Source: a virus
IMG/VR virus record: IMGVR_UViG_3300042566_000678
Span: 64,001 to 128,000 of that record
Direction: 5' to 3' (one strand)
Length of the DNA: 64,000 bases
Positions 7,029 through 32,544 of the stretch are shown here, piece after piece. The translations under genes were made by a program, and so were the position numbers. The notes beneath the pieces are model-generated. The model had not been told where the DNA came from. It made no database searches and was given only the letters and a program-made list of their open reading frames with translations. Position 1 is the first letter of the stretch, and every line of letters starts with the position of its first letter.

Positions 7029-7060
7029 CTAATATACGAAATTATTTTCATAAAACCAAG
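7029..7060 (-). promoter_or_regulatory. Bacteroidota-type promoter (TTGG...TATATTAG)
   Basis: Same spacing as the TTTG..TATATTTG copies elsewhere in the window. Confidence 0.6.
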
Positions 7061-7146
7061 GGGAAAGCATAAAAACTGAATCAAGGTAACTATCAAAAAA
7101 ATTAGGTTTCGACTCCGTTTCCTACCCCCGCCCCTCCCCCACGCTA
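7058..7146 (-). ncRNA. G-rich structured element, copy 1 (candidate cis-RNA)
   Basis: Homologous to 32456-32544; nested stems; core GTCGAA..CCTAA..TTTTTGATAGT. Confidence 0.5.
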
Positions 7147-7731
7147 AAATGGGTTATATGATGGGTTATGTTTTGTTGCTTGAATCATTGCTTTCTCATA
7201 CTGACTGAAAATATGCTCAACAAAAAATTCTTTACTCTTTAATACTTTTAGTGGTACTTTAGACCAGGAATACCCAACTGGTTGTTGTTTTTTATATACA
7301 GGTCTTACATCTTCATACCTTACCACCATCCTTACATACTTACCAATATTTTCATCCAATGGTGAGTCTTTATCCTCTTCTATTGGTTTGTATATCTTTA
7401 CAATACCACCACCTTGTGGCTTCGGACTTGAGAAACTCGGTAACAAATTAGATTGTTCTGTTATCGTATATGGGTAGTACTCTTCTTCAGGTGCCAATGT
7501 AGTGAATACAGAAGATGGTTTTAAAGATAGTGTTACACCATTTATCACCTTCCTTGCATTCAACTCCTTATAGTTATGCAGTTTGATATTCTTTACCCCT
7601 GGCTTATCTTTGATGTGGGCTTGGTATTGGTCAATTGCTTCCATTAGTTTTTGATTACTACTATCTATTTTGTGTGCTATTCTATCAAGTGTTATAGCAC
7701 GCATTATATCTGCGTATTCCATTGATTTCAT
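7144..7731 (-). CDS. Hypothetical protein, possible internal LxIxN-family domain
   Basis: 195 aa; internal IKLHNYKELN; ends in TAG. Confidence 0.7.
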   Translation of the reverse strand: MKSMEYADIMRAITLDRIAHKIDSSNQKLMEAIDQYQAHIKDKPGVKNIKLHNYKELNARKVINGVTLSLKPSSVFTTLAPEEEYYPYTITEQSNLLPSFSSPKPQGGGIVKIYKPIEEDKDSPLDENIGKYVRMVVRYEDVRPVYKKQQPVGYSWSKVPLKVLKSKEFFVEHIFSQYEKAMIQATKHNPSYNPF

Positions 7732-7952
7732 ATCTCCCCAAAATATTGTGCCGTTACTGCTATGAATACTCGCATTATATTTTCATCTACCTTACCCTCT
7801 GCTCTAACAAAATCCATATAGATTTCCGCAAGGTATTTAGTCATCTCACTCTGCTTATCTATGTTATTGGTTTTGGATTTCTGAATCATCTTCATCTTCG
7901 CCTCATATCCACCATGCTCATAGAATTGGTTGAACTTATCTATTATAGTCAT
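7728..7952 (-). CDS. Hypothetical protein
   Basis: 74-aa ORF with ATGA overlap. Confidence 0.65.
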   Translation of the reverse strand: MTIIDKFNQFYEHGGYEAKMKMIQKSKTNNIDKQSEMTKYLAEIYMDFVRAEGKVDENIMRVFIAVTAQYFGEI

Positions 7953-7964
7953 CCGTTTATCTTT

Positions 7965-8246
7965 TTAATATGGTTTCCAACCATTTCGTTTTCTTTCCTC
8001 ATCTTTTAACCTTTGGTATTCCCTTGCGTTCTCCTTATCTTTCAAATAATCTCTAATTGGTAGTGAAATCACAAACACCATACCAATCAATAATATGGTA
8101 GTTAGCACATAGGGTAAGTAATCACCCAATAGAACTCCAATTGTCAGTATTACTAAAATTATACCAATAACAGCCATTACCATTAACGCTGCAATTCCAA
8201 TTGCGGTGATGTTTCTTTTCCAAACGTGTTTTGTGTATTGATTCAT
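7965..8246 (-). CDS. 2-TM membrane protein
   Basis: Long hydrophobic hairpin, basic C-terminus. Confidence 0.7.
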   Translation of the reverse strand: MNQYTKHVWKRNITAIGIAALMVMAVIGIILVILTIGVLLGDYLPYVLTTILLIGMVFVISLPIRDYLKDKENAREYQRLKDEERKRNGWKPY

Positions 8247-8248
8247 CT

Positions 8249-8752
8249 CTAAAATTTATATCCAACTCCCAAACCTATGGTTGATATTTTGGAAACCTGA
8301 CATTCTGTTCTAATCATTCCCTTTTTGTCTTCTCCAAAATAAAAATCAATACCAACCCCAACATATGGTTTTTGATATTTTTTATTACCAGTTGTAGTAA
8401 TGTCCTGTACAAACTGTCCACCAGCCGAAACAAACACATTTGCATTCTTATTGTTGTTTATATTAAACATAGGAACGAATACTCCTAAATTTCTAAAAGA
8501 ACTACTAATTGTATATGTATTTCCGTTAATAAAGTTTGTAGCATCCTCATCACCCAATGTCATCCCACGTTTAAACTCAATACCCACTTTTCCAAAATTA
8601 ACCCACCCACCATAAATCATTGATGGATTCAAACGATTTGTTGTAAAACCACTTACTCCACCAATTGTATAAATTACTTTCTGATTGGTTTTGTCTTGTC
8701 CATACGATACGGACGATAATAATAATCCTGCAATTACTAATAATTTTTTCAT
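8249..8752 (-). CDS. Putative small outer-membrane beta-barrel protein
   Basis: Signal peptide ending SYG-Q, amphipathic strands, C-terminal GLGVGYKF. Confidence 0.7.
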   Translation of the reverse strand: MKKLLVIAGLLLSSVSYGQDKTNQKVIYTIGGVSGFTTNRLNPSMIYGGWVNFGKVGIEFKRGMTLGDEDATNFINGNTYTISSSFRNLGVFVPMFNINNNKNANVFVSAGGQFVQDITTTGNKKYQKPYVGVGIDFYFGEDKKGMIRTECQVSKISTIGLGVGYKF

Positions 8753-8850
8753 AACCTTTTTTTGTTTATTTCTTTGATGTCAATCTACCGTAGATAACAC
8801 CCACTAAAAATACAGATACTATTGTACCTATCATTACTAACTCTACCACA

Positions 8851-9387
8851 TTATTTATGTTTTTTTAAGAAAAATACCAATGTCAATCTACTATTTTCTT
8901 TTGTATCCCCAAACGGATTTGTTGGTCCATGTAGTATATCGGCTGGATATATTACCATTGTATTATATACATTCTCTGCTTCACCAACCTTATTACCTTC
9001 ATCATCGAAAAATGATGTCCCACTATTTTTTGGTGGGTTAGGGGTTAAATACACTAAACCTACTATCCTAGAATCATTACTATCGTAGTGCTTTGATGCT
9101 TCCTCAAAGCTTTCAGTAGTAAAATTAGCTCTTACCTCCTCCGATGTTATATGGAAATACAATTCCATTTCACCATATTTAAAATTAGGTATTCTAAATG
9201 AAACTTCTTCAACTATCATTCTCTCTAAATCAACCCCAGCCACTACTCTGTTTGTGGGATTAACTCTCATACCCCGCCAACCTTGCGTTGGTGATGGACC
9301 ATCAAAATCCATATTTAAAGCACACTCTCTTATCTCATCTGGATTATCAAAGAAATTATCTATCTTATATACCTTTACTATTTCCAA
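8851..9387 (-). CDS. 2OG-Fe(II) oxygenase (DUF6445-like)
   Basis: IDNFFDNPDEIR..HYD..GLVYL..H..RLTLVFF. Confidence 0.8.
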   Translation of the reverse strand: MEIVKVYKIDNFFDNPDEIRECALNMDFDGPSPTQGWRGMRVNPTNRVVAGVDLERMIVEEVSFRIPNFKYGEMELYFHITSEEVRANFTTESFEEASKHYDSNDSRIVGLVYLTPNPPKNSGTSFFDDEGNKVGEAENVYNTMVIYPADILHGPTNPFGDTKENSRLTLVFFLKKHK

Positions 9388-9925
9388 TGATATTATTATC
9401 TTTTATTGATGCAAAAAATGTTAATGCTAATCTACTATCCTCATTGGTTTCACCAAATGGATTTGTGGGGGCGTGGATTATATCAGCAGGGTAAAATACA
9501 AATCTATTATACACATTTTCCACCTCTCCAATCTTTCTACTAACATCGTCAAAAAATGATGTACCACTATGCGGTGGGGGTTCTGGTGATAAATAAACTA
9601 CACCTGCAAAATGTATTACTTCGCTATCGGTGTGTGATTGTAGATAATCAAATTTATCACCCATATCTCCCCTTACACTTTCAGGTAATAAATGAAATAC
9701 CAATCTTAAATCAAAATCAGGTACATCTGGCAACCAACCTTTAACTTTATCTTTTATATAAGTTTCTATGTTAATTTCACCAATTTCAATATCCAAATCT
9801 TCGGTTCTTAAACCCAACCAGCTTTCATCCGTATCCGGCGTTCTATATGATTGAGCAAGAGCACATTCCCTAATTAAATTTGGGTTCTCAAAAAAATTAT
9901 CACATTGTAGTGCTCTTACTTGCAT
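9365..9925 (-). CDS. 2OG-Fe(II) oxygenase (DUF6445-like), tandem paralog
   Basis: HTD..AGVVYL..H..RLALTFF; likely start MQVRAL. Confidence 0.8.
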   Translation of the reverse strand: MQVRALQCDNFFENPNLIRECALAQSYRTPDTDESWLGLRTEDLDIEIGEINIETYIKDKVKGWLPDVPDFDLRLVFHLLPESVRGDMGDKFDYLQSHTDSEVIHFAGVVYLSPEPPPHSGTSFFDDVSRKIGEVENVYNRFVFYPADIIHAPTNPFGETNEDSRLALTFFASIKDNNIIGNSKGI

Positions 9926-10409
9926 ATTGTTCTCTAATTTTAGTTCCACTTATTTGTGCTATATCAGCTGGTGGTTCGTGGTATATTACATCGTACCCAA
10001 CACCTCTACCATAGTTTACTGAATCAATATCAGGTATGATTGAAACCATTATTCTATCTTTGTTTTTAATAAAAAATGTTTCATCTAGCAAATCTAGCCA
10101 CACCCTATGTGAAGTTTTAGGATTGTTTTCATCCGTAGGTACATCCCTAATAGCTACCCATACATTTTTTCCCTTTTCCAATTGTTGGTTTATTAGCCAC
10201 TCATGTCCTTCATGCCAATTTTGCCACCTACCGATAAATAAACTATACTTTAATTGTGTTTTAGGCATACAACGATATTTTGTAGTAGGTCCTTTGGGGG
10301 CTACATACACAAAATCATCATCGCCAATGGGCTCGAATTGTCTGAATGGTTTGTGTTCTTTCTCAAACTCATTTAAACGATTGTTTATATCCTCTAAATC
10401 AATTCCCAT
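9900..10409 (-). CDS. Cytidylyltransferase-like (HIGH-motif) nucleotidyltransferase
   Basis: FIGRWQNWHEGH and ISGTKIR motifs. Confidence 0.8.
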   Translation of the reverse strand: MGIDLEDINNRLNEFEKEHKPFRQFEPIGDDDFVYVAPKGPTTKYRCMPKTQLKYSLFIGRWQNWHEGHEWLINQQLEKGKNVWVAIRDVPTDENNPKTSHRVWLDLLDETFFIKNKDRIMVSIIPDIDSVNYGRGVGYDVIYHEPPADIAQISGTKIREQYASKSTTM

Positions 10410-10411
10410 AG

Positions 10412-10723
10412 TTATTCACCTAAATACTCTTTTCTATAATATGCCTCATCAAAATAATACAATCTATACTCTTCCAAATAATTTTGTAATTTACACAAAT
10501 CACACCCATCAATAGTCTTATCTTTGATGCTTGATTCACTATGTATAAAATCTAAATCATTTATTTTTTGGATGAATGATTTAGTGCTTTCAATACAATG
10601 TGGTTGTATTTCATCAAACTCTCTACTATGTAATGCTGCTATAAATTCCTTAAATGTATATTTTTTTTTAGCTTCCATACTATTTTTTTGATTTTTTCTT
10701 TGTTGCTTTTTTAATTGGTTCAA
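10412..10723 (-). CDS. Hypothetical protein
   Basis: ORF; true start is probably MEAKKK. Confidence 0.55.
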   Translation of the reverse strand: MNQLKKQQRKNQKNSMEAKKKYTFKEFIAALHSREFDEIQPHCIESTKSFIQKINDLDFIHSESSIKDKTIDGCDLCKLQNYLEEYRLYYFDEAYYRKEYLGE

Positions 10724-10988
10724 CTACCACTTCATCCACTTGCTCTGTAATTTCCTTTGGTATATTTAACTGCTGAAAGATGTGTTCGTTTTCCTCACTT
10801 CTCTCCAAATTAACCAAATCGTAATCATCATCCTCTACCATACCCCACTCTGGTCTTTCCCATAGTTCTTTGACAAGATTCTTAATATCCTCTTCTTCAG
10901 GAGCACCTTCCCAAACACAAATGTGCTTTACCAATACTCTACCATCTTCCTGATTCTTTGTTGCAATCGTTGCGTATTTAACTTCCAT
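10680..10988 (-). CDS. Hypothetical acidic protein
   Basis: 102-aa ORF. Confidence 0.65.
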   Translation of the reverse strand: MEVKYATIATKNQEDGRVLVKHICVWEGAPEEEDIKNLVKELWERPEWGMVEDDDYDLVNLERSEENEHIFQQLNIPKEITEQVDEVVVEPIKKATKKKSKK

Positions 10989-10990
10989 TT

Positions 10991-11143
10991 CTATATTGTT
11001 TTTAATAATTCTCTTAACTCTTTTACTCTCAATCTACCTTCTGCATATTGGTCATCATCGGATGCTCTGTGTCCGTTTAGGTTGGCAATCGTTATTTCAT
11101 ATTCTAACTTAACCAACTCCGATATTATATCATTAAAATCCAT
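10991..11143 (-). CDS. Hypothetical protein (50 aa)
   Basis: Hand translation MDFNDIISELVKLEYEI...; fills the gap. Confidence 0.6.
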   Translation of the reverse strand: MDFNDIISELVKLEYEITIANLNGHRASDDDQYAEGRLRVKELRELLKTI

Positions 11144-11144
11144 T

Positions 11145-11591
11145 CTATATTGTTATGTATTTTCGTTTTATTCTACCAGCACCTTTGTATCCTTTCTTAT
11201 ACTTTGGTTCATCTAAATTACTAATCTTCACACCTTCTGCTCTATTGGCAGCGTGTACTATTTGGTTATTACCTATGTATGTACCACAATGCCAACCCGA
11301 TGGTGATATTCTACTTCGAAAGAATACCAAATCACCAAAAGATAAACTATCTCTATCAACCCTATCGGTTTGTATCCATTGTGTTTGACAATTGTTACCC
11401 AATCTAATATCAAATACCTCCTTATATAGGCGTTTGTTGAATTGTGAACAATCTATACCTCTTTCAGTAACACCACCTAACCTATACGGCTTACCCACCC
11501 AATGCTCTATAAACCTATTCATAGTTGAATCAGTTGTTTGTGCAAAGGTAGGTAAACTTAATAATACAAATATACTAAATTTTTTCATCAT
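11145..11591 (-). CDS. NlpC/P60 cell-wall peptidase with signal peptide
   Basis: GKPYRLGG..GIDCS..GDLVFF..HCGTYIG..IVHA. Confidence 0.92.
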   Translation of the reverse strand: MMKKFSIFVLLSLPTFAQTTDSTMNRFIEHWVGKPYRLGGVTERGIDCSQFNKRLYKEVFDIRLGNNCQTQWIQTDRVDRDSLSFGDLVFFRSRISPSGWHCGTYIGNNQIVHAANRAEGVKISNLDEPKYKKGYKGAGRIKRKYITI

Positions 11592-12208
11592 TCACAAATA
11601 AATCTTATCTTTCTTTCTATTGAATCCTTTTCAATCCTAACAAATAATTTTGATGTTGGTATCTCTTTTGTTATATGAGCCACAGCAGTAATGGTTATTG
11701 TATCTCCCTTCATATAGTATATTGGAGCAACCATAGTATTCACACTACCATCCGATGATGATGGATACGATGAACCATTTACCGTTGGAATTAATGAATT
11801 TGATTGAGACTTAAATGTACCCAATTCAGCTGTTGTCAGTTTTCCTGTAAATGTGTTAAAATAGGTTTTATATACTACGAATAAATTAGTTTTATTATTT
11901 AAAATCCAATAATGAGAACTTTTCCATTCTATTTTACAATCAACGGGTGATGGAATTGGATTTGGTTCACCATTCCACAAAAATTTTCCGGTGATACGGC
12001 TAAATGTTTGAAAAGTATTTTCTGATAATTTTAGATGATAGTATCCATTTATATCCTTTGGTAAACTCCTAGTACCAAATCTATTTAAAGCAGAATCCAA
12101 TTGGAATGTAAAATTGTATGCAGGTGGTTTAGGTACTATATATTGCGGCTCTTCGTAGCAAGATATTAATCCTAATAGTATCGGTAAAAATAATAGTAAC
12201 TTTTTCAT
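11588..12208 (-). CDS. Putative lipoprotein
   Basis: Lipobox LISC after a hydrophobic signal. Confidence 0.7.
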   Translation of the reverse strand: MKKLLLFLPILLGLISCYEEPQYIVPKPPAYNFTFQLDSALNRFGTRSLPKDINGYYHLKLSENTFQTFSRITGKFLWNGEPNPIPSPVDCKIEWKSSHYWILNNKTNLFVVYKTYFNTFTGKLTTAELGTFKSQSNSLIPTVNGSSYPSSSDGSVNTMVAPIYYMKGDTITITAVAHITKEIPTSKLFVRIEKDSIERKIRFICE

Positions 12209-12552
12209 CGTTCATTTACAAAATCATCTAGCATCTCATTTAATGCCTTTATAATATTATCACTACTCTCTAATGCTTTCTTTTTTATACCCAAATCCTT
12301 TCGTTTAACCCGCCCATCATCAAAACGTTGTATGATATGGGTGTCATAAACTGGTGTTTTATCGTTTGGAAACTTTGGGTCTACATCGGTTCTTTTGTTT
12401 CTAGCTATTCCTATGTATATTGGTACATTATGAAACTCAAATGCATACTCTACGAATATCCTATATGCCAATTCGTTTTCTTCGATGCTTTGTATGTACA
12501 ACCTACCTTCGAAATACCCATTCAGTTTATCAAAATTACTTATGGTTAGCAT
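12205..12552 (-). CDS. Hypothetical protein, LxIxN paralog family
   Basis: MLTISNFDKLNG. Confidence 0.75.
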   Translation of the reverse strand: MLTISNFDKLNGYFEGRLYIQSIEENELAYRIFVEYAFEFHNVPIYIGIARNKRTDVDPKFPNDKTPVYDTHIIQRFDDGRVKRKDLGIKKKALESSDNIIKALNEMLDDFVNER

Positions 12553-12890
12553 TACAATTCCACCCCCCTTATAATTTCTTCAACACATTTTAATAGTATA
12601 TACCTATTTTCTATATGCTTTGTTCCTACAAACATTTCGTCCAAAGATACCCAATTATTTGATGCTTGCCATAGTTTTGTTTCTAAATGGTATCCGTGTC
12701 CATCAACTTTGTTTCTATTGAGTGATACCTCTATAACAGGAAATTCAGATGGATTTGGTTTATTATAGAAAGCTAATACATATGCTTCATCGGAAGAATA
12801 TGTTTCCGTTGCTGTCCACATACCAAAATCAAAATAAACAGTATTAAGTGGTTCTTCTAATTTATGAAAGTTCTTTATTGTTAGAGTCAT
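12552..12890 (-). CDS. Hypothetical protein, LxIxN paralog family
   Basis: MTLTIKNFHKLE. Confidence 0.75.
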   Translation of the reverse strand: MTLTIKNFHKLEEPLNTVYFDFGMWTATETYSSDEAYVLAFYNKPNPSEFPVIEVSLNRNKVDGHGYHLETKLWQASNNWVSLDEMFVGTKHIENRYILLKCVEEIIRGVEL

Positions 12891-13467
12891 ACATTTCTAA
12901 AACATAGTTTATTACTACTCTCCTATCTGATAATTTTGGTGTTGTTGATGTGTGAACTCGATTTGAATCAAATAATATACCAGTACCACCTTTTGGGGTT
13001 TGTCTATAAATTTCTTTTAGTTGGCTTATATTATGTTCGTTTCCATCTAAATATGTATCAAACAATATAGTATCACCATCCGAATCATTTACATAATAAA
13101 CAAATGATAATAGATTTGGTCCAGAATAATCTATATGAGGACCATTATAAAAATCATTTGGATACGAAGCATCGCCAACCATAAGGTTTGCTTTAATACG
13201 AATTACTTTTTTTATTTTACTACCAGCTTCCTTTTCAATTATTCCCAGCATTTCTGAAAAATAATGGTAATATATACTTTTTTGTTGCTTATCAATCAAT
13301 ATGGTATGCGTGAATTGTGGCATATCTTTGGTTTTTGAATCAACAACAGTACCATAATCTCCTTCAAGCAATGTTGCACCATTCCAATACCAATCAAACT
13401 CCGAACCAAGCATTAATTCTGCCAAAACATCGGCATATTCCTTATCTATTTCTATTCTTTTTACCAT
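12862..13467 (-). CDS. 2OG-Fe(II) oxygenase
   Basis: RIKANL..PHID..YYVNDSDGDT..H..RRVVINY. Confidence 0.85.
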   Translation of the reverse strand: MVKRIEIDKEYADVLAELMLGSEFDWYWNGATLLEGDYGTVVDSKTKDMPQFTHTILIDKQQKSIYYHYFSEMLGIIEKEAGSKIKKVIRIKANLMVGDASYPNDFYNGPHIDYSGPNLLSFVYYVNDSDGDTILFDTYLDGNEHNISQLKEIYRQTPKGGTGILFDSNRVHTSTTPKLSDRRVVINYVLEMYDSNNKELS

Positions 13468-13762
13468 AATAATTTTCAAATAAATCCATAAATCCACTAA
13501 CTATGAAAGAAACATCGTTTGAGGTTTTAATGTGCGATGGTATAAATTGTGCAGTATCTTTATATTTTCCATAACTGAAATGGATTTCATAAAAATTACT
13601 ATGTTGATTTCTATATATCATTATATTACCACCTTTCTTTTTGTGGTTAAACATAATTTTATATACACCATCCAATACTAATACATGGGTAATAATAGAA
13701 CCCATATCGGTTTTTTTACCAATTAAGGTTTCAATCGTTGGAATTATCAGTTTCTTGCTCAT
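13442..13762 (-). CDS. Hypothetical protein, probable LxIxN family
   Basis: KLIIPTIETLIG..YKIMF..IMIYR..YEIHF. Confidence 0.6.
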   Translation of the reverse strand: MSKKLIIPTIETLIGKKTDMGSIITHVLVLDGVYKIMFNHKKKGGNIMIYRNQHSNFYEIHFSYGKYKDTAQFIPSHIKTSNDVSFIVSGFMDLFENYYGKKNRNR

Positions 13763-14121
13763 TTAATTTCTTTTTATGTTCTAACTCTTTTATTAAACCT
13801 TTCACTACTCTATTGGTATTTCTAACGTGTAGGTATATTAACCAAGCTGAAATACCGAACCAAAATAAATCTAATACCATTTCCATATTACATATCATCA
13901 AATAGCCAGAACATTATCCTAACTACTATTATTAAAATTACAATTATTGTTCCAAATGTTATATAAACAGGATTTATCATCCTACATAAATATCAGTTAT
14001 TCGGATTCACCAAATAAATCATTTCCTTTGTAATTGGGATGATTTTTTTTCATATTATCCATACCACCTATCCACAACCAGCATATTGGTGCCAATATTA
14101 CTAATATAATTACAATACCTA

Positions 14122-14457: not shown

Positions 14458-14478
14458 ATGTTTATAATTTATGTTTAA

Positions 14479-14700
14479 CTAAAAAAATCTGTTGAATCTC
14501 TCCTTCTCCTTTTTGGGTTTCTTCTTCTTTGGTTCAAACGGCTGATATTTTGATTTGATTTCAACCGATACCGGTCCATTGGTGAACTTTGAATAATCAT
14601 ATTTCCATATCATTATCGAATGTTCATCTTCATAGATTTGCTCAAACTTTCTGGGAGCTGTTGGTTCATTACTTATCTTTGCCATAGAACAAATATACAA
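14479..14700 (-). CDS. Hypothetical protein
   Basis: Likely start MAKISN, just downstream of a promoter. Confidence 0.6.
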   Translation of the reverse strand: MYICSMAKISNEPTAPRKFEQIYEDEHSIMIWKYDYSKFTNGPVSVEIKSKYQPFEPKKKKPKKEKERFNRFF

Positions 14701-14721
14701 AATTTATTTGACAAATCCAAA
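14690..14721 (-). promoter_or_regulatory. Bacteroidota housekeeping promoter TTTG...TATATTTG
   Basis: TATATTTG at 14697-14690, TTTGG at 14721-14717. Confidence 0.75.
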
Positions 14722-14722
14722 T

Positions 14723-14752
14723 AAAAAAGGTACTATTTCTAGTACCTTTTTT
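14723..14752. terminator. Intrinsic terminator (bidirectional shape)
   Basis: AAAAAAGGTACTA TTTC TAGTACCTTTTTT. Confidence 0.8.
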
Positions 14753-23251: not shown

Positions 23252-23295
23252 AGGAATTGGATTTATGTTTTATGTTTAATAATTAGTAACTCTCT

Positions 23296-23345
23296 CAATG
23301 TTTAGTAAAGATACGCAAAATAATTGATAATGTCAAGGTAATTGC
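23296..23345 (-). promoter_or_regulatory. Early-type promoter
   Basis: TTGACA at 23336-23331, N17, TATCTTTA at 23313-23306. Confidence 0.8.
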
Positions 23346-23369
23346 CAAATATTTTTGAACTTTTTTTCA

Positions 23370-25529
23370 TTATTTTTTAAGAAATAATTCGTTCAAAGTT
23401 TTGGTGATTGGAACTAAACCATTTACATCAATAAATTTAGCATCCTTACCATACATTTCAGAAAACACTTTCTTTGAACTTTCGTATGGTGTGTAATCAG
23501 ATACAAAGTAACTCAACACCCCAATACCACGTTGTTTGATTCTCTTAACCATTTCAGCGGTGTGCTTACTTGCTACCTGACGAGAATAGTTAATTGAATC
23601 ATTACCAAAGTTTGGTTCACCATCTGAAATGTTTAGGAAATAGGATTCCAAATCGTTAGATGATTCAACAAAGTGTTTCATAATTGCTTCGAAACACAAA
23701 CCTTCAGGTGTAGTACCATTTGGTTCTAATGCTGCTACCAATTGTTTAACCTTTGTAAACTTATCAGTACGAGAATCGTATGCAATAACCATATAAGGTT
23801 TACTATTATTCCAGCTTCCACCATCAATTGTTGAACGAACTGAAACCTGTACATCCAAGTTGTTTACCATCGTAGCTGCTTTACAGATAGCGATTGTAGT
23901 GGTCATTGCCTGTCTCCATCTATCACCTGCCATAGAGCCAGATGCATCTAATGAAATATGAAGAATGATTTTCTTAAATTTATCAACCTCTTTAGTGTAG
24001 AAAACGTTTTGGTAATCATAACCCAAAGCAGAAACCAATCGGCGGTCAATTCGTCCATTTAACTGACGATTGTAAACCGTATCACGTTCTTCACTACGAA
24101 CTTGCAATCTCTTACCCAATAAAGTTCCCAATGCTAATCCCTTTTGTAAGGTATTCTCATCAACAACCAACTCTTTAGTTCTCCAATCCTGTCTAGCCAA
24201 AGGAAATGCTTCGGATTTCATCAACTCTTCTGTCAACTTTTTAACCACTACCACCTGCGTTTGAGGAACTTTACCCACACCTTCGATAGTTTCACCAGCA
24301 ACATTCACCAATTCAGTACCCGATTTAGCAATCTGTTCTAATGCTTTATCATCTTTGTTAGTGATTGTTTTCTTTTTAGTTTCACCTTTTAAGAAATCTT
24401 GTTGTTTCTTAATTGCTTTCTCTAATTTCTTACGATTAGCTTCACTTAAACCAGCACCTTTATCAGAACCTTTACCTTCAGATTCTTTAACTTTAACCTT
24501 ACCTTTAAGTGGTTGGTTTAGAGAAGCAGATGGACCTGAATCAGAACCCGAATCACCATCTTCTGAATCATCAAACTCAACCTCTAAATCATCATCTTCT
24601 TCACCATCTTCACCCTGTCCGTTGCCAGAACCCTCACCTTTCTCTTGTGGTCCATCCTGCGCATCTTGCTTACCATTACCATTCTTTTCATCCTCCAGCT
24701 CATCAGCGATAGATTGAATGATAATCTCAACAATACCTTCTGCAATCTCAACTGATTGTTGAGTAGAGGTGATACGATTGATATTGTTTAAGTTTAACAA
24801 TTTAGAAATCTTACCTAAACCTCTCAACTTTGATAAGTTAGTGTTGGGGTTGGTGATATTGATAATACGGAACAAATAAGAATCAATTGTTTCCGTAGTA
24901 TATTCATTTGAAAGTAATCCTTTATCAATAGAAGCATCGTTGAAATATGTATCATATAAAGAACGATAGTAATCTCGGTAGCCAGGGCAGGTAGTGTAAA
25001 CGTGATTGTCAATACGTTTATCTTCTACATAGTTAGTTAAGTTCTTAACCAAATCCCAAATCCGTTGTTTAGCCCAATTTTGGTGAGATTGATTACCTCT
25101 ATCTACATTTTCAACCACATCTAAATACTTATCAACCAATGTAGGATTGGCTTTGTAATTAACAAAGGTTTCAAAATCAGTAAGAACAATGTGAGATGCT
25201 TCGTGCAATGCTAAACCAACCGTAGAATCAAACTTATCTGGCTTCAAATCAGAAGAGATAGTAACAGATTTACCATCGGTATAAGAATCACCTTTGACGG
25301 TAAAACGAACAGGAATGTTTCTGTTAGTAAGGATATTAACAAAGTTAGAAATGGCTCTACGATGAGCATTTAACTTTAAATAATGTAGGGTAGAGTTTTC
25401 AGTAGCAGTTCTGGTAGGAACATCTGAATCATCCAAATCATCCCAACCATAATCTAAATCGTAATCATTAGCCCAAAAAGAAGTGGCTGATTTGGTAGAT
25501 GTTTTACCTTTGAAGAAGTTGTTTATCAT
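23370..25529 (-). CDS. VWA-domain protein with N-terminal HExxH domain (CobT-like partner of the AAA ATPase)
   Basis: HEASH, acidic linker, MIDAS DASGSM...GTTP...ISDGEP. Confidence 0.88.
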   Translation of the reverse strand: MINNFFKGKTSTKSATSFWANDYDLDYGWDDLDDSDVPTRTATENSTLHYLKLNAHRRAISNFVNILTNRNIPVRFTVKGDSYTDGKSVTISSDLKPDKFDSTVGLALHEASHIVLTDFETFVNYKANPTLVDKYLDVVENVDRGNQSHQNWAKQRIWDLVKNLTNYVEDKRIDNHVYTTCPGYRDYYRSLYDTYFNDASIDKGLLSNEYTTETIDSYLFRIINITNPNTNLSKLRGLGKISKLLNLNNINRITSTQQSVEIAEGIVEIIIQSIADELEDEKNGNGKQDAQDGPQEKGEGSGNGQGEDGEEDDDLEVEFDDSEDGDSGSDSGPSASLNQPLKGKVKVKESEGKGSDKGAGLSEANRKKLEKAIKKQQDFLKGETKKKTITNKDDKALEQIAKSGTELVNVAGETIEGVGKVPQTQVVVVKKLTEELMKSEAFPLARQDWRTKELVVDENTLQKGLALGTLLGKRLQVRSEERDTVYNRQLNGRIDRRLVSALGYDYQNVFYTKEVDKFKKIILHISLDASGSMAGDRWRQAMTTTIAICKAATMVNNLDVQVSVRSTIDGGSWNNSKPYMVIAYDSRTDKFTKVKQLVAALEPNGTTPEGLCFEAIMKHFVESSNDLESYFLNISDGEPNFGNDSINYSRQVASKHTAEMVKRIKQRGIGVLSYFVSDYTPYESSKKVFSEMYGKDAKFIDVNGLVPITKTLNELFLKK

Positions 25530-25553
25530 AGTATCTATCTTTTAATGTATATA

Positions 25554-25700
25554 CAAATATAGTGAAAATAATTGAGAATGTCTAATGGTATTTTACCAAC
25601 TTTTGGTGTTATTTTACCCAATATTGATTTTATTTTATATCTAACTCTCATTACCCTATAAAGATACGCAAAATATATGATAATGTCAAGCTTTTTCTTA
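25554..25700 (-). promoter_or_regulatory. Tandem promoters upstream of the VWA gene
   Basis: TTGACA(25689-25684)-N17-TATCTTTA and TAGACA(25584-25579)-N17-TATATTTG. Confidence 0.75.
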
Positions 25701-25717
25701 AATATATTTTTGGACAT

Positions 25718-25742
25718 AAAAAAACCTCCCACTTTGGGAGGT
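25718..25742 (-). terminator. Intrinsic terminator
   Basis: ACCTCCC AAAGT GGGAGGT followed by a T run. Confidence 0.85.
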
Positions 25743-25763
25743 CTAATTATTAAATAGGTTTAA

Positions 25764-25925
25764 TTATTTAGCTACTGAATCAACTGCCGCCGAATCTGTT
25801 GCTACCGAATCTGCTGCAACAGTATCAACTGCTACTGAATCTGCTGCTGCTTCTGTGTTTTTCTCACCACAAGCTACTAATCCTAATCCTAATGCGATAA
25901 ACGCTACGAATAATAAATTTTTCAT
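25764..25925 (-). CDS. 53-aa lipoprotein with D-(S/T)-(A/V) repeats
   Basis: Hand translation MKNLLFVAFIALGLGLVACGEKNTEAAADSVAVDTVAADSVATDSAAVDSVAK. Confidence 0.8.
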   Translation of the reverse strand: MKNLLFVAFIALGLGLVACGEKNTEAAADSVAVDTVAADSVATDSAAVDSVAK

Positions 25926-25935
25926 ACTTTTTGTT

Positions 25936-26256
25936 TTATTGTTTATTTGTTTTTGGTTTATAATAACGTCTTTTTTTCTTTACAGGAACTTCGTTTCCTT
26001 TTACTACATCAGCTACTTCGCCCATTTCTTTGGCTACTTTCTTAACTGCTTTAGTAACATCTTCAACTTGCTCCTTAACTTTTTCAATCTTTACCTTTGT
26101 TTCTGTAAAGGTTTTGTTTACTTCTGCAATAGATTCCTCTACTACATCTGGGATTGAATCCCCATCCGAGTCTTTAATTTTACCACCTTTGGTAAGTAAG
26201 TAGACCACACCAACTGCAACCGCTGCTAATGCGAGAATGATTAGAATTGTATTCAT
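25936..26256 (-). CDS. Membrane-anchored coiled-coil protein
   Basis: N-terminal TM, DSDGDSIPD motif. Confidence 0.7.
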   Translation of the reverse strand: MNTILIILALAAVAVGVVYLLTKGGKIKDSDGDSIPDVVEESIAEVNKTFTETKVKIEKVKEQVEDVTKAVKKVAKEMGEVADVVKGNEVPVKKKRRYYKPKTNKQ

Positions 26257-26289
26257 TTATTTTTATTTATTTGGTTACTATTATAAATA

Positions 26290-26556
26290 TTAATCTTCGC
26301 CATATAACGAAAATCTTTTCTGTGGGACTTCCACTTCAACTTTGGTAACTATTTGAATAGTTCCTTCCCTCGCATCAATATAGAATTGAGTGCTACCATA
26401 CGATTGAAACCATGCTTCCAAAGCATCTGTAAGAGAACCGTAAGTTTGCCCAGCACCGATTGTCAAACCATTACCCTCTTTAGCAGCTTTCCATCTATCT
26501 CCAGGTGGAAATCTATTAAAAATAACCTTACGTTCTTCTTTAGTTTCTTTTTCCAT
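26290..26556 (-). CDS. Hypothetical protein
   Basis: 88-aa ORF. Confidence 0.7.
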   Translation of the reverse strand: MEKETKEERKVIFNRFPPGDRWKAAKEGNGLTIGAGQTYGSLTDALEAWFQSYGSTQFYIDAREGTIQIVTKVEVEVPQKRFSLYGED

Positions 26557-26765
26557 TATTCAAATACCTCTACGATTTTTGATTGTGCTGCTCCTTTGAT
26601 GTTATACTCTAACTGAATGTTAGATGCTTCAAATTCCTTAACAACTCTTGCTTCTGCTTCGGTCACCGATTGAGCATCCACTAAATATTGTTCTGTTACT
26701 TTTTTAGTTCCACCCTTACCATTGTCTGTGTGTAACTCTACTGCTACTTGAAAGTACTTCGCCAT
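26556..26765 (-). CDS. DUF4494-like protein
   Basis: KKVTEQYLVDAQSVTEAEARV matches a Bacteroidota family as recalled. Confidence 0.7.
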   Translation of the reverse strand: MAKYFQVAVELHTDNGKGGTKKVTEQYLVDAQSVTEAEARVVKEFEASNIQLEYNIKGAAQSKIVEVFE

Positions 26766-26853
26766 AGTTTTTTTGTTTATTTATTAGTTTTAATTTTTAA
26801 GTGATACAAATATACGAATAATATTTTATATCTCCAAATGTTTTAAGGTTTTT

Positions 26854-27357
26854 TTAAGTAGTTGGTAATTCTGTTAGTTTAAAGGCAATAGTAACACGCA
26901 AATTGTTATATCCTTTTCTTGGTGCCATTCCTTTGTGTTTATATTTATGTTCAAATAATACTGCCGAATTTGGTATTGGTGTTACGGCAATGGGTTCACC
27001 ATCTACCATAAAATAAGTTTCACCAACTAAAGATATATCATCGGTATCATTAAAGTAATATAAAAATGTGTAACCTATATCATTATTGAAAGAATCAACG
27101 TGCCAACTCCCATCTTGTCCTAATGTTTGACCATTGGCATATAACCTATCAATTTTAAACTTTTTATTACTTAACTTTTCGATTTCAGATAACCATTCCA
27201 CAAAGAACGGGTGTTCCATCAACTCCGAATACCAAAATCTATTAGCTGTTACATCTTTTGTACTATAACCAGAATAAACCCATTGTAAATTTTCAACAAT
27301 TTTTACAAGTTGATTATACTTTTCTTGTGTTAAGAAATCAAAATATCTCTGTATCAT
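26854..27357 (-). CDS. 2OG-Fe(II) oxygenase
   Basis: RLYANGQT..WHVD..H.G..LRVTIAFK. Confidence 0.85.
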   Translation of the reverse strand: MIQRYFDFLTQEKYNQLVKIVENLQWVYSGYSTKDVTANRFWYSELMEHPFFVEWLSEIEKLSNKKFKIDRLYANGQTLGQDGSWHVDSFNNDIGYTFLYYFNDTDDISLVGETYFMVDGEPIAVTPIPNSAVLFEHKYKHKGMAPRKGYNNLRVTIAFKLTELPTT

Positions 27358-27359
27358 AA

Positions 27360-28067
27360 TTATTCAATTGTAGTTTCATCCTCTGTTGCTTCATCTTCAT
27401 CGCCATCATCTACCACACCTTGTGTGATAATAGTTCCTCTCTTTGGTATCCTCCGTTTACCTACCAACAGAAAGAAGCAGTTATAGCAAAGGAATCGTAG
27501 ATTCTCCAACTTATGGTTTTGCCAATCATTATCTAAAAAATCTAATAATAGTGGAACTTTTCCATCGGTTGCTCTTTTCTCATCAAAACCACAACACGTA
27601 CATTCTTCTGCAAAGTAACCAGATGTAATCAATCTACGCTTTAATCTTGCAATTGGATAATCTGGTTTACCTTCACCTCTTAATATTTTATCTAATGCAT
27701 TCTCACCACTATGAACTTGGTTAGCACGGATAATACCAATACCAGCTGGATTTAATAAGTTTTCAAATATACCATAGGTTTTAGCCCATTTTTTATAGGT
27801 ATTATAAGATACACCCAATGTCCTAGCTGCCTCAAATGCGGATTTGGATTTAGATTGTGCATCTCTAATATCGTTTTCCAATATAGGACGAAACCCTGCT
27901 CCACGTGGATATGCTCCCGTAGACCATTTTTTCTTCACCATCGTATCTTTTATTTTTTCGATACGCTCTTCAGGTGTAAGTTTCTCCTCTTTGGGTTGGT
28001 CTACATCTTCCCACTTATCCTCACTATCTTCACCCCAATTAGCAAAAAACCTTTCTTCTTTCGGCAT
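27360..28067 (-). CDS. HTH + degenerate HNH/zinc-finger protein
   Basis: AARTLGVSYNTYKKWA; CTCCG...LDFLDND..NHKLENLRFLCYNC. Confidence 0.7.
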   Translation of the reverse strand: MPKEERFFANWGEDSEDKWEDVDQPKEEKLTPEERIEKIKDTMVKKKWSTGAYPRGAGFRPILENDIRDAQSKSKSAFEAARTLGVSYNTYKKWAKTYGIFENLLNPAGIGIIRANQVHSGENALDKILRGEGKPDYPIARLKRRLITSGYFAEECTCCGFDEKRATDGKVPLLLDFLDNDWQNHKLENLRFLCYNCFFLLVGKRRIPKRGTIITQGVVDDGDEDEATEDETTIE

Positions 28068-28068
28068 A

Positions 28069-28314
28069 TTAATCTATATTGTATTCTCGTATAAGATGAA
28101 TTGGTGTGATGTATTTACCTGCATCATCTGTTAAATGATGGTTTAATACATTAAATTCCAAATGTTCCCAAGCATCACTATAAGTCATACCATCTCTAGT
28201 CATTAGAGTAGTAATCATTATATCCGTATCATATATGTATCTACCGGTATCGTAGCAGTTTCCTATAATAGCCCCATCAAATCCATCCCATTTTATTTTC
28301 TCTTCTTCTTCCAT
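28069..28314 (-). CDS. Conserved phage hypothetical protein
   Basis: DGFDGAIIG..DGMTYSDAWEHLEFN pattern. Confidence 0.65.
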   Translation of the reverse strand: MEEEEKIKWDGFDGAIIGNCYDTGRYIYDTDIMITTLMTRDGMTYSDAWEHLEFNVLNHHLTDDAGKYITPIHLIREYNID

Positions 28315-28315
28315 A

Positions 28316-28924
28316 TTATTCCTCTATATGTTTATACCAACCGGTTATAATATATTTAGTTTCAGTTTCACTAACTTGACCTTTATGAAAATGTGTCCAA
28401 AATGCAGGCCATATTAAAAATTTACCAGCTTCTGCTTTTTCTGTGTGGTTTTGTGATTTAAACTGCGTTCCACCTGCCTCTACATCATTTAGATATATCA
28501 TCCACGCCAAAACTCTATTAGAACTATTGGGATAGCCGGGGTTCTCACAATGCCAATTATAAAAACCTTCACCTGGTAAGTATCGTTGTATGTTATATCC
28601 TTCCAAATCAAACTTTTGTATGCTATCTAATGCTGGATGTTCCAACATATAAGAATCTAATCCCTTTTCCAATTTAGAATTTATATATTGTACATAATCA
28701 AACCATTCTGGTTCACCACGTTGTATAGCATCTTCGATAAAGCCAGGATACATAGAAATATCGGTTGATTTTTTAGTAGTATTTTCATCTTTAGTTTCAA
28801 TTACCCCACCATTTATCACATACGATGTACCTTTATGTTTGAAATTTGATTTTTCAAATAACTCTATAAGGTCTTTGCAAAACTCTTGTGATAATAAATT
28901 TGGTACTCTATGTATAAAATCCAT
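28316..28924 (-). CDS. 2OG-Fe(II) oxygenase (prolyl 4-hydroxylase-like)
   Basis: WHCE..RVLAWMIYLNDV..GGT..HFHKG..KYIITGW. Confidence 0.9.
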   Translation of the reverse strand: MDFIHRVPNLLSQEFCKDLIELFEKSNFKHKGTSYVINGGVIETKDENTTKKSTDISMYPGFIEDAIQRGEPEWFDYVQYINSKLEKGLDSYMLEHPALDSIQKFDLEGYNIQRYLPGEGFYNWHCENPGYPNSSNRVLAWMIYLNDVEAGGTQFKSQNHTEKAEAGKFLIWPAFWTHFHKGQVSETETKYIITGWYKHIEE

Positions 28925-28926
28925 TA

Positions 28927-29187
28927 TTACTCCTTTATAAATTTATCAACTGCTTTTTGATTTCTATCTAAAATCCGTTTAACATTATCCCAAGCATCAT
29001 CATTCTCTTTTAATAACTTTGGATTCACACATTCAATACGAGTTGGTTCATCTCTAACTGGAACGATATAAGAAATAATATCAGCATCCTTTGCTAATGA
29101 TTCTTTTATTAGTTCCATCATTTCTCCCAAATTACTATTAGGTACACCATCTATATTAATGTAGTGAACCAAAATTATCTTATCCAT
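28927..29187 (-). CDS. Hypothetical protein
   Basis: 86-aa ORF. Confidence 0.65.
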   Translation of the reverse strand: MDKIILVHYINIDGVPNSNLGEMMELIKESLAKDADIISYIVPVRDEPTRIECVNPKLLKENDDAWDNVKRILDRNQKAVDKFIKE

Positions 29188-29768
29188 TATACTAAATTAA
29201 AGTTTATAACACACCGCATACCATTTGTTGGTTGTTCCGCAGTGTGATAGTATTTACCATTAAATATAACTGCTCTACCTTTTTTTGGTGTTATACGATG
29301 TAAAACCTCATAATCGGTATGTTTTAAATCTTTAGCAACATCTTCACCTGCTTCAAATTTTTTATTTACAATTACAGTATCACCATCACTATCCAATACA
29401 TAATATAATACAACCAAATGTTCGGATGTAGAATCTATATGCAATTTATCAACAAATTCTTTTCTCCAATCTGTATTTAATGGGAATTGTAAAAAAGAAC
29501 GGACCTGTAATACATCTTGATAATCAAATCCATATAATTCTGCACCTTTATCACCAACATCTTCAATTAGATTATAAAATTGACTATTTGTTTTATAATC
29601 CAATCTATAATAATGATTCATAACAGGTGTGTTAGTTGATGATATAGTTGGATATGTTGCATCATTCAAATAAAACCAAGGAAACCCACCATTTAATAAA
29701 GTTTCTTTTATTTCATCTTGCTTTTCCAATGATACAATATCATCTACAATCAAAAACTTATCACTCAT
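29187..29768 (-). CDS. 2OG-Fe(II) oxygenase
   Basis: LHID..LYYVLDSDGDT..YYHTA..RCVINFN. Confidence 0.85.
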   Translation of the reverse strand: MSDKFLIVDDIVSLEKQDEIKETLLNGGFPWFYLNDATYPTISSTNTPVMNHYYRLDYKTNSQFYNLIEDVGDKGAELYGFDYQDVLQVRSFLQFPLNTDWRKEFVDKLHIDSTSEHLVVLYYVLDSDGDTVIVNKKFEAGEDVAKDLKHTDYEVLHRITPKKGRAVIFNGKYYHTAEQPTNGMRCVINFNLV

Positions 29769-30334
29769 TATAGTATTTCATCAATTACACCCAAATCCAA
29801 CGCTTCGTCTGCTGGGATGTACCAATCAATCTTTTCTTTATATACTTCCTTCAATCTTGTCTTCTTAATGCCAGTTCTACGGACTGTGAAATCTTCAATC
29901 CATTTCTGTAATCGTTTCATCTCAATCACATCATCATCAATATCCTTCAATGTACCAGCCGATACGGATGAAACTTGGTGATACAATAGAGTTGATGTTG
30001 GGTATGCAAATCGTTTATGACCTCCCAATGTAATTAAGAATCCACAACTCATAGCAACACCTGTAACAATCGTATGTATCGGTGTCGTTGAACGTTCCAT
30101 CACACCTAACAAACCCATACATTGATACACTTGTCCACCATAACTATCTATATATATCTTAATTGGTTGAGGTTCGTATGTTAAACCATGTATAGAATAC
30201 AATTTTTTTAAGTATTCATCATCCTCAACTATATCTACAATTGACTTTGTTAATTCCAATATCGTAGATTGCTCTACCTGTTTGGCAAAGTGTAGTGTTC
30301 TATTTTTAGGTAGTAATAATCCTCCTGCGCTCAT
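29768..30334 (-). CDS. clpP: ClpP-like protease
   Basis: IYIDSYGG, AMSCG (catalytic Ser), LYHQ (His), EALDLGVIDEI. Confidence 0.88.
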   Translation of the reverse strand: MSAGGLLLPKNRTLHFAKQVEQSTILELTKSIVDIVEDDEYLKKLYSIHGLTYEPQPIKIYIDSYGGQVYQCMGLLGVMERSTTPIHTIVTGVAMSCGFLITLGGHKRFAYPTSTLLYHQVSSVSAGTLKDIDDDVIEMKRLQKWIEDFTVRRTGIKKTRLKEVYKEKIDWYIPADEALDLGVIDEIL

Positions 30335-30337
30335 ATA

Positions 30338-31593
30338 TTAATCGTCTAAACTTTCTAAATGGTTAAATTCTGCAATGGCTTCACCTAATTCATCATCACT
30401 CCACTCACTCAAAGAATCTTTTAAATCAGTATTTTCAGTTTCGTAAATAGATTCTGCCATTTCTTTAATACCATAATTCCAAGTAGATTCATCGTACCCC
30501 AAACCTACCGTAATTCCTTTAAAAATATCCAATAACTCGTGTATATCTGTATCTGAATTAGCTAGTTCAATACTAACCTTTCTACCCCATTGTTCTCCTG
30601 TAATCTTTGTAGGTTGTGCACCTTTACTTATATATGTCATATCTATTTTTTGTTTATTACATAGTTGCACACTTCAATACCAAAAAGCACAAAGCGAAAC
30701 CAACTATGAAAAGTATTAGGGGTGTTTTAATTTCCTTCATATCTATTTTGATTCAAAATCTAATTCTAATTGATTACTTCCCGTCGTTGGTTGTTGTGGT
30801 AATGTAGTTGTATAACTCCATGCAGAACCACTTGGATTCCACATCGTTGTTGTAGATGGATTATATGTAATAGAACCATATCCAGGCGTAGCTATAATAG
30901 TTCCACTACTACCGGTTGTTACTGTTAGCGTTGTGTCAGTTCCACAAGTTACCTTATATGGATTGTATGGGTCATATGGTTGGATAAATGGTAATGTTTG
31001 TATTGGTGCAGTATTTGGAACTCCAAATGGAAAAGATGGTGTTGATTCATCCTTAACCTCACCTAACTTATCTTTTAGGGTATCCCACTGCTTTGGTGTG
31101 GGTGAATAATCATTGCAGGCTTCTACAAAACCTTGCATCCAAACTACAAATTCTTTTGATGTCATAATCTTATTTATCTAAATATTCTTTTACTTTACTC
31201 CAATACATATAACCCCTATCAGCTCCCATATCACTCAATACCTCATCACATACCTTTTTGGCAAATAGAATCGCAGTAGGACGATATAACCTACTATAAT
31301 CACTCATCTTCGGTGGTTCTGTGTTCATAAAGAACTCAATCAATTGTTCCCCTTTTTCTTCTGGTGTTATCATCTTATTTATCTTCTACCCAAATGTGCA
31401 TATCACTTTGAATTGGATTGCCGGTATAGTCGGGGTTCAAAACGGATTTCCATTTCTGCCCGCATCTTCTACATTTCATTTTAGATGGCATCCACCCAAA
31501 GTTCGTTTCGTAACGATGTCCTAAAATCTTACATAACAATTTTTTCATTTCAAAGATTATCAAATATGAATTTAGCAAACTTTCTATGTCCAC
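30338..31593 (-). other. Small hypothetical CDSs (30338-30670, 30743-31165, 31170-31373, 31375-31593)
   Basis: Packed ORFs; 30743-31165 is Thr/Pro-rich; 31375-31593 has a CKILGH..CRRCG motif. Confidence 0.6.
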
Positions 31594-32134
31594 TTGAAAT
31601 TAAATGTATCCCATCGGACGAGTCACCACGAAAAATACTATCTTCCATAGGAATTACAACACATTCTTTTAAATCCGTTTGTATTCTCTTTTGTAATGAA
31701 ATGTATCTATTACGGCATTTAGTTTCAACTTCAGCTGAATAGATTGTGGTTTGTATCACTCTTTGTGGATTATACCCAACAATTACAATTGGTACTGCTC
31801 CCATCTTTTTTGCGATGTAAACCATACTTTGAATGTTTTTGATGGTTTCATCCTCTTTAACACTACTAAATGAGTCGTTGATACCACCATAAATTATTAC
31901 AGTATCGTATTCATACGAACCCAATGGATATTTTTCCATTTGATTTAACATCCATTTAGTTCGTTTACCAGCCTTTGAGATGTTATCATATTTAGCGTGT
32001 CTTAACCTTGAAAGTTGATGCTGCCATCCACCTCTATAAGCCGTTAGAGAATCACCAACGAAAAGAATTTTTTCTTCTTCTTCCGTAAATCCCATCAAAA
32101 ACCAACACAATAATGTTATAAGTCCTATTCTCAT
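31550..32134 (-). CDS. SGNH/GDSL hydrolase with signal peptide
   Basis: FVGDSLT, GGIND, DGIHL. Confidence 0.88.
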   Translation of the reverse strand: MRIGLITLLCWFLMGFTEEEEKILFVGDSLTAYRGGWQHQLSRLRHAKYDNISKAGKRTKWMLNQMEKYPLGSYEYDTVIIYGGINDSFSSVKEDETIKNIQSMVYIAKKMGAVPIVIVGYNPQRVIQTTIYSAEVETKCRNRYISLQKRIQTDLKECVVIPMEDSIFRGDSSDGIHLISSGHRKFAKFIFDNL

Positions 32135-32455
32135 TTTAAATATTTTCTAATTCCATACCCAACGATACTGCCGGTATAGTTGTCGTAGATTGTACACAAT
32201 TCCATTCGGAATAAAAATCGTAGGATTTTATTTGTGAACTTCATTTTTGGTTTTAAGTTGTTTGATTTGGTCTTTTAAGGATTTAATCTCGCTCTTTAAT
32301 TGGAATGTTCCAATCATTTGAATAGAAATACACACCAATAGACCTATTAGTACCCATACCAATGTATTATCTCTCTTATTCATAACTTTTTATTTATTTG
32401 AACAAAGATACGAAATTATCCGATTAAATCCAAATAATATCTATATTTTTTTATA

Positions 32456-32544
32456 GGATGGGGGAAACCGAAGATTGGGGGGAAGGCGCACTATCAAAAA
32501 TTTTTAGGTTCGACACCTTTTCTCCCCCCGCCCCCTCCGCGCTA
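32456..32544 (-). ncRNA. G-rich structured element, copy 2
   Basis: Homologous to 7058-7146; followed by a TATCTTTG promoter at ~32403-32434. Confidence 0.5.

Follow-up and report, generated by a model that had tools for sequence, protein, structure and literature searches.

A short G-rich intergenic repeat at gene-exchange junctions in uncultured large phages, a candidate boundary cassette

We analysed a 64,000-nucleotide stretch of viral DNA (hereafter, the window), bases 64001–128000 of the 148,235-bp IMG/VR virus record IMGVR_UViG_3300042566_000678 (G000), in which a short G-rich intergenic element occurs twice on the - strand. Each copy directly follows the TAG stop of a gene, and the two genes are unrelated: an open reading frame (ORF) of 195 residues (7144–7731; stop at 7144–7146) and an Endonuclease_NS nuclease (32542–33210; PF01223; stop at 32542–32544). 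The order of parts is the same in both copies: TAG, G runs, the hexamer GTCGAA, an A/T block, TTTTTGATAGT, C-rich runs and a host-type promoter. Promoters of this form, TTTG-N20-TAnATTTG, are present in intergenic regions of the genome and correspond to the Bacteroidota -33/-7 type. An earlier note, made from the letters alone, had reported two copies behind unrelated genes, each trailed by a Bacteroidota-type promoter, and both observations were confirmed. Its element length of ~88 nt was too generous, as the homologous part (hereafter, the core) covers only 52–55 nt (7143–7089 and 32541–32490).

Copy 1 has a core of 55 nt (7089–7143; profile E = 2e-15) that consists of a G tract (7125–7140), GTCGAA (7108–7113), an A/T spacer and TTTTTGATAGT (7089–7099). 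It is followed by a variable tail (7056–7088) in which a C/U-rich arm, CTTTCCCC (7060–7067), precedes UUUU and is able to pair with the G tract in a predicted fold of -27.5 kcal/mol. The promoter (TTG...TATATTAG; 7029–7059) stands before the ORF of a 109-residue membrane protein (6678–7007), and an element-less allele of this promoter/membrane-protein cassette is present in the related locus L005. The core of copy 2 measures 52 nt (32490–32541; profile E = 7e-14), with the G tract at 32522–32538, GTCGAA at 32509–32514, an A/T spacer and TTTTTGATAGT at 32490–32500. Its tail (32456–32489) bears two C-rich arms (32477–32486 and 32456–32467) predicted to pair with the G tract at -32.2 kcal/mol, and the promoter TTTG-N20-TATCTTTG (32403–32434), kept in relatives with or without the C arm, precedes a 51-residue membrane-protein ORF (32228–32383). 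All these features lie on the - strand. The two cores are 78% identical and the C-rich tails are alike in composition only; the promoter follows both copies but lies outside the conserved core. No other site in the 148-kb genome scored above 12 bits with the family profile, and |G4Hunter| reached 2 or more at two genome sites only, which are these two copies. Given the profile E-values and the exclusive quadruplex-scoring sites, we conclude that the repeat is real and not a chance match.

The record has an estimated completeness of 80% (CheckV) and a G+C content of 33%. A simple ORF call over the whole record placed 202 of 211 ORFs on the - strand, and the G tract of the element lies on the same, i.e. 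non-template, strand. GC skew is monotonic over all 148 kb; together with one-strand coding, this is unusual for a T4-like phage. PHROGs matches comprised the portal, the large terminase and a baseplate-wedge protein, all of them generic. Both copies sit among small same-strand ORFs.

Further copies were sought by pattern scans of IMG/VR and metagenome contigs, 185,579 prokaryote genomes and 50,697 cultured phage records. We found 29: metagenome contigs contributed 25, and two related IMG/VR fragments the other four. With the window copies the family counts 31 members, which come from three virus records plus 25 metagenome contigs and fall into three gene contexts. These represent 27 distinct sequences when flanks are included and 16 distinct cores. 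The 15 matches in the prokaryote genomes were all judged to be chance, and the cultured phage records held no real copy. Nor were diverged copies detected: across 1.09 Mb of related loci and the whole genome, an nhmmer profile returned nothing between 44 and 12 bits. One candidate member, L009, was rejected as a chance match inside an ORF. The element family is real and previously undescribed.

Across the family, the core is 52–55 nt long with sharp borders and contains three invariant blocks: GGGGCGGGGG, GTCGAA and TTTGATAGT. The first two are separated by 10–12 nt, where one position accepts all four bases, and the last two by 8–10 nt. The A/T block keeps a steady length (9–10 nt, with one outlier) while its A-to-T boundary shifts, and we therefore regard it as a spacer rather than a U tract. 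The core is always in sense orientation and starts 0–9 nt past the stop codon of the upstream gene. G4Hunter scores of the cores ranged from 2.4 to 2.95, and G-quadruplex-aware folding placed a quadruplex in all 16 distinct cores.

The largest context, B, comprises 14 copies behind the nuclease. Context A comprises 10 copies behind a gene of 180–200 residues, to which we add copy 1 of the window behind a different 195-residue gene, and context C comprises six copies behind a 74-residue gene, 10 nt or ~80 nt ahead of a tRNA-Met gene. Within contexts, core identity averages 92–96%, against 67–97% in the upstream 150 nt and 56–68% in the downstream 100 nt (context A: core 95%, upstream 67%, downstream 56%; context B: 92%, 82% and 68%). 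Overall, conservation is higher in the core (92–100%) than in the coding DNA next to it (50–82%). Between contexts A and C, cores are 91% identical and flanks unrelated, and the core variants 'a' and 'b' each occur in both. Some pairs of contigs are mosaic at the element, with sharp borders at both core edges. L024 and L065 share 60% upstream and 100% in the core and downstream; L024 and L037 share 71–76% upstream, 100% in the core and 48% downstream; L016 and L003 have fully identical cores in unrelated flanks. We conclude from the conserved core and these mosaic pairs that the element is strongly constrained or homogenised, and that it is a junction of module exchange. By this comparison, the core is the shared identical stretch where related phages swap, gain or lose adjacent genes.

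Gene order supports the same picture at both loci. Contexts A and C and copy 1 of the window share one syntenic slot, which extends from the 74-residue gene (window 7728–7952) to the 'MLTIEN' gene (5366–5725). In L055 and L066 this slot reads 74-residue gene, element, tRNA-Met, membrane protein, 182-residue gene; in the window, 74-residue gene, 195-residue gene, element, C arm, promoter, membrane protein, 113-residue gene, 179-residue gene; and in L005, 74-residue gene, element-less promoter cassette, 115-residue gene, membrane protein, 199-residue gene, element, spacer, 'MLNIRN' gene. The unit running from the membrane protein to the 180–200-residue gene is therefore 3' of the core in the window and L055, and 5' of it in L005. 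Behind the nuclease, two arrangements occur. In B1, as in the window, the nuclease is followed by the core, C arm, promoter and 51-residue gene; in B2 a 170-residue gene absent from this genome follows the core directly, and the same promoter and 51-residue gene come only afterwards. Distant phages carry the 170-residue gene 3–18 nt past the nuclease with no element present, from which we conclude that the element is a clade-restricted insertion. Only two of 80 phage loci with nuclease homologues have it, those of IMG/VR records G001 and G002, already known as carriers. The same two loci are occupied in three phages, 22.5–25.4 kb apart, with flanking genes diverged to 50–82% identity.

Several features of these neighbourhoods deserve mention in their own right. 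An ORF 2.1 kb downstream of copy 1 (4564–5013, - strand) matches HNH and helix-turn-helix models weakly, below threshold. It may encode a free-standing homing endonuclease situated in the variable slot, and a 335-nt non-coding stretch (4229–4563, - strand) lies directly downstream of this ORF. In the equivalent slot of L055, 1.4 kb downstream of the element, a 205-residue ORF (3962–4576, - strand of the locus) has NUMOD3 motifs, NUMOD3 being a DNA-binding module of homing endonucleases. The HNH and NUMOD3 genes of the slot may contribute to gene exchange. At the downstream side of the element in L070 (909–990) and in L015, TTGAT(A/T)G occurs five times at spacings of 12, 21, 9 and 21 nt, starting with a repeat that lies within the core. 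The series resembles iterons or operators; the core-to-next-gene spacer in this region is hypervariable among close relatives. L116 is a distant relative that lacks the element; the 18-nt spacer separating its nuclease from the following gene (3149–3170) is similar to the A/T block with ATAGT in B-type cores, which could hint at a source of the element's 3' part or be chance in AT-rich DNA. Lastly, ~14.7 kb past the end of the window (142720–142950 of the full record), a 230-nt non-coding stretch between tRNA-Ala and tRNA-Met holds a long GC-rich inverted repeat, GCCGGTGTGG...CCACCGGC, while in relatives the element stands before tRNA-Met instead. None of the 19 full-length contigs was a small, mini-circle-like circular contig.

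The position of both window copies directly after TAG, in frame with each other, had suggested to the earlier note an amber read-through signal adding a Gly-rich tail to the upstream protein. The two read-through peptides it quoted were reproduced, and TAG precedes 24 of the 31 copies, whereas it ends 15% of ORFs genome-wide. The family as a whole nevertheless refutes this proposal. Seven copies follow TAA, and some are set off by a 4–9-nt spacer. The frame of GTCGAA relative to the stop, which the earlier note saw kept between the two window copies (GVE and a distal stop), is 0, 1 or 2 in 11, 12 and 8 copies. Among orthologous nuclease copies the stop lies 30, 31, 32 or 33 nt from the core block and the read-through peptides differ, and the nuclease homologues of 78 other phages stop at that same residue, with no extension. 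One context leads into a tRNA gene. The earlier note had also pointed to a CUA-anticodon tRNA as something to look for; none of the 25 tRNA genes in the record has this anticodon. As for the TAG excess, it traces to about five independent junctions. The 74-residue gene ends in TAG where the element follows and in TAA or TGA where the element is absent, so TAG probably belongs to, and travels with, the edge of the cassette. We give almost no credence to read-through and conclude that no stop-codon recoding takes place at this element.

The earlier note's broader proposal of an undescribed structured cis-RNA found no support in the comparison. RNAalifold on 15 distinct cores gave a consensus energy of -1.75 kcal/mol and no covarying pairs, and Rfam returned no match at the gathering threshold or at E ≤ 10. 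The G-run/C-run stems are predicted in the 11 copies with a C-rich arm (the two window copies and nine B1 variants), which fold at -20 to -36 kcal/mol, most at -27 to -36, and they show no covariation. Single-sequence folds of the window copies, computed for both strands, do not exceed shuffles in stability. C arms are not present in contexts A, C and B2. Searching the genome for a trans-acting RNA complementary to the core brought up nothing but AT-rich words and one word of 9 nt that also occurs in tRNA T-arms, to which the core read as RNA would be complementary. That word, found on the + strand in the reverse complement of the core, was judged a chance resemblance, and a tRNA or tRNA fragment was rejected since ARAGORN finds none at the copies. 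A cis-RNA that acts in the mRNA for processing or for stabilising the 3' end, or as an antitermination signal of the nut/put/ops kind, would suit the sense orientation in transcribed DNA, the position right after stops, the G-U pairing possible in the sense strand only, and two to three copies per genome, as for nut/put sites. Against the missing covariation, the near-zero consensus energy, the empty Rfam search even at E ≤ 10 and the lack of a partner beyond these words, we hold it highly improbable.

When examined for a GC-rich hairpin followed by a U tract, the core did not qualify; copy 1 together with its arm came close and copy 2 did not. A processing or termination element, another option of the earlier note, is possible only as a non-canonical attenuator. 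Ordinary terminators of hairpin and T run occur elsewhere in the phage, several of them fused to a promoter. Two such fusions to a host-type promoter on the - strand, at 37371–37448 (with a G4-loop-C4 stem) and at 14686–14751, have the usual build of the cassettes of T4-type phages discussed below. A host-type promoter inside the core was considered and discarded: the best matches to TTTG-N19-21-TAnnTTTG have 3–6 mismatches in 10 positions, as do random 70-nt genome windows. The element is likewise unlike all three promoter motif classes enriched upstream of phage genes. Besides the TTTG-N20-TAtATTTG class, we observed a distinct second class, AAGACTTGACA-N17/18-TACCTTTA (- strand; 849–934, 2377–2456, 2802–3163, 3927–4045 and 23252–23369), and a third, ATATTTAT(A), which is enriched in the upstream regions of 23 genes and may be the late promoter. 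Of the options raised by the earlier note, a G-quadruplex or DNA site fits best: conservation is at the level of sequence, spacers are of fixed length, and predicted quadruplex potential extends to all 16 distinct cores.

The anatomy, orientation, position, conservation and restricted distribution of the element, as well as its mosaic junctions, are established by sequence comparison. We tentatively favour, with a confidence slightly short of even, the reading that these repeats are a clade-specific intergenic junction cassette, a boundary and linker that resembles in architecture and behaviour the promoter-early stem-loop (PeSL), the mobile regulatory cassette of T4-type phages (Arbiol et al. 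2010, PMC2839356; Comeau et al. 2014, PMC4122927). A role as a transcription boundary is likely, we infer. In such a model, the non-template G tract would damp transcription that runs on from the operon upstream. Where a C arm is present, tract and arm would pair in the RNA; where there is none, G-quadruplex or hybrid structures would take this role. The promoter that follows would then restart expression, and the invariant GTCGAA and TTTGATAGT blocks would probably bind a protein.

A number of observations weigh against this PeSL-like boundary reading. Attenuation is something that we purely infer, and a model built on it leaves the invariance of GTCGAA and TTTGATAGT unexplained. The hairpins of the window do not outdo dinucleotide shuffles in stability (z = -0.96 and -0.67), the 18 pairs predicted in the 11 copies with C-rich arms include no compensatory change, and copy 2 has no U tract after its stem. 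A C arm and an adjacent promoter are both lacking from the majority of copies, those of contexts A, C and B2. The chief difficulty lies in contexts C and B2, where the tRNA-Met gene or an ORF starts 10–12 nt past the core with no promoter of its own. Since a strong terminator would silence such genes, the stop must be partial, or else the core is itself a factor-dependent promoter. There are only two copies per genome or fragment, whereas PeSLs number in the tens. Homing-endonuclease genes of the same slot could drive the shuffling without any role for the element. As to T4-type affinity, Pfam Gp23 found no match in the phage; control genomes gave none either, so that search was uninformative.

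The promoter alternative just named would have the three blocks dock a phage-encoded activator, sigma factor or repressor, with transcription starting just past GATAGT. It would account for the sequence-level conservation, for fixed spacers about one helical turn apart, for the sharp 3' border, and for a tRNA-Met gene 10 nt and a 170-residue ORF 12 nt past the core with no other promoter between. In L070 and L015, moreover, the TTGATAG of the core is continued by four TTGAT(T)G repeats, at the spacings given above. Yet the core matches the host pattern no better than random windows, resembles none of the three enriched classes and has only two copies per genome. A separate, complete host-type promoter stands behind both window copies, and the element-less L005 allele retains that promoter. 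We consider a factor-dependent promoter or operator unlikely. The strand and composition of the G tract lead to a different proposal, that the element is a phage counterpart of CSB II, the mitochondrial conserved sequence block II: a co-transcriptional hybrid G-quadruplex or R-loop would halt the host RNA polymerase in the A/T block, with a factor at GTCGAA/TTTGATAGT, and the stop would prime replication (an origin) or provide the lesion that starts gene-shuffling recombination. The non-template tract, G5-A-G4-C-G5 or G5-C-G6, invites comparison with human mitochondrial CSB II, G5AG7; nothing else in the genome has its quadruplex potential, and the cores all retain it; and fixed orientation, a following A/T block, two to three copies per genome and recombination junctions coinciding with the element would all fit. 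Cumulative GC skew, by contrast, has no inflection at either copy, and the downstream DNA is not G-rich and therefore offers no R-loop elongation zone. The A/T block begins 21–25 nt past the G tract, B-type copies allow only two-layer or bulged quadruplexes, and the quadruplex itself is a computed propensity. We find this proposal quite unlikely.

Some of the evidence for a junction cassette would also be expected of a selfish or neutral sequence, a recombination scar or homing-endonuclease target homogenised by gene conversion among co-infecting phages and of no benefit to them. Identical cores in unrelated flanks, the narrow phyletic range, the variants 'a' and 'b' in both contexts A and C, as if homogenised, and HNH and NUMOD3 endonuclease genes 1.4–2.1 kb away are all compatible with it. 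However, the element has no terminal inverted repeats, target-site duplication or coding capacity, and the retention of the same two loci in three phages despite the divergence of their flanks suggests selection. We regard a selfish or neutral origin as very unlikely.

If the PeSL-like boundary reading is correct, mobile regulatory cassettes as drivers of modular phage evolution would extend past T4-type coliphages and vibriophages to uncultured large phages with Bacteroidota-type promoters, and to a different build, in which a long invariant G-tract module takes the place of the promoter-centred repeat. The element would serve as a practical marker of recombination breakpoints in this phage group. 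Being short, sharply bounded, better conserved than the adjoining genes and the sole strong quadruplex candidate of its genome, it is also a clean test case for the regulation of bacterial RNA polymerase by non-template G tracts in vivo.

Two further observations from the window stand apart from the element. A ~170-nt GC-rich non-coding stretch in this AT-rich genome (2975–3145, - strand), between a 73-residue ORF and a CTTGACA-type promoter, folds at -62.6 kcal/mol with a z of only -0.81 and has no Rfam match at E ≤ 1. The thymidylate synthase of 387 residues encoded at 34631–35794 (- strand) is spanned from residue 7 to 386 by a Pfam model of 266 positions, and therefore carries an insertion of ~120 residues.

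Among known systems, programmed stop-codon read-through signals share with the window copies a conserved sequence right after the stop, and differ in that this family keeps no constant stop codon, spacing, frame or extension peptide. Intrinsic (Rho-independent) terminators are likewise found right after a stop at an operon end, and the long G/C stem of copy 1 runs into UUUU. In contrast to them, the core has no hairpin adjoining its T run, the only stem before the T run being of 4 bp; the T run itself varies from 3 to 7 and can shrink to 3 as the A run grows; and copy 2 and its orthologues have an A-rich tail past the stem. For the G tract, mitochondrial CSB II is the closest resemblance, as a physical analogy and not a homology. 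In CSB II, transcription by unrelated polymerases stops at non-template G tracts in an orientation-dependent way and stable RNA-DNA structures arise, and at least two such tracts suffice for a hybrid G-quadruplex (PMC4176368, PMC3488243). Similarly, the non-template strand of the element carries two to three long G tracts split by single bases, with A/T-rich sequence after them. It belongs, however, to another biological system and has extra invariant blocks downstream of the tract.

The comparison with PeSLs goes further. These work both as terminators and as promoters, form clusters in hyperplastic regions and mark indels, replacements and the excision of mini-circles (PMC2839356, PMC4122927). 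Like them, the present element is an intergenic cassette, sits among small early genes in a large phage and offers a short stretch of homology. Both window copies have a polyG...polyC stem just upstream of a host-type early promoter, and the element coincides with the insertion, deletion, replacement or displacement of single genes between close relatives. Unlike PeSLs, which occur in tens per genome, it has two copies in the 148-kb record and two in each of two related fragments. Its 'loop' is a 35-nt invariant sequence, and its constant part is the G tract with that sequence, while in the PeSL it is the promoter; many copies have neither C arm nor promoter. The promoter type is Bacteroidota (-33/-7), not sigma-70, and this phage is transcribed from one strand. 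With a conserved heart that is not a promoter and with few copies per genome, we treat the element as working like a PeSL rather than as a member of that family.

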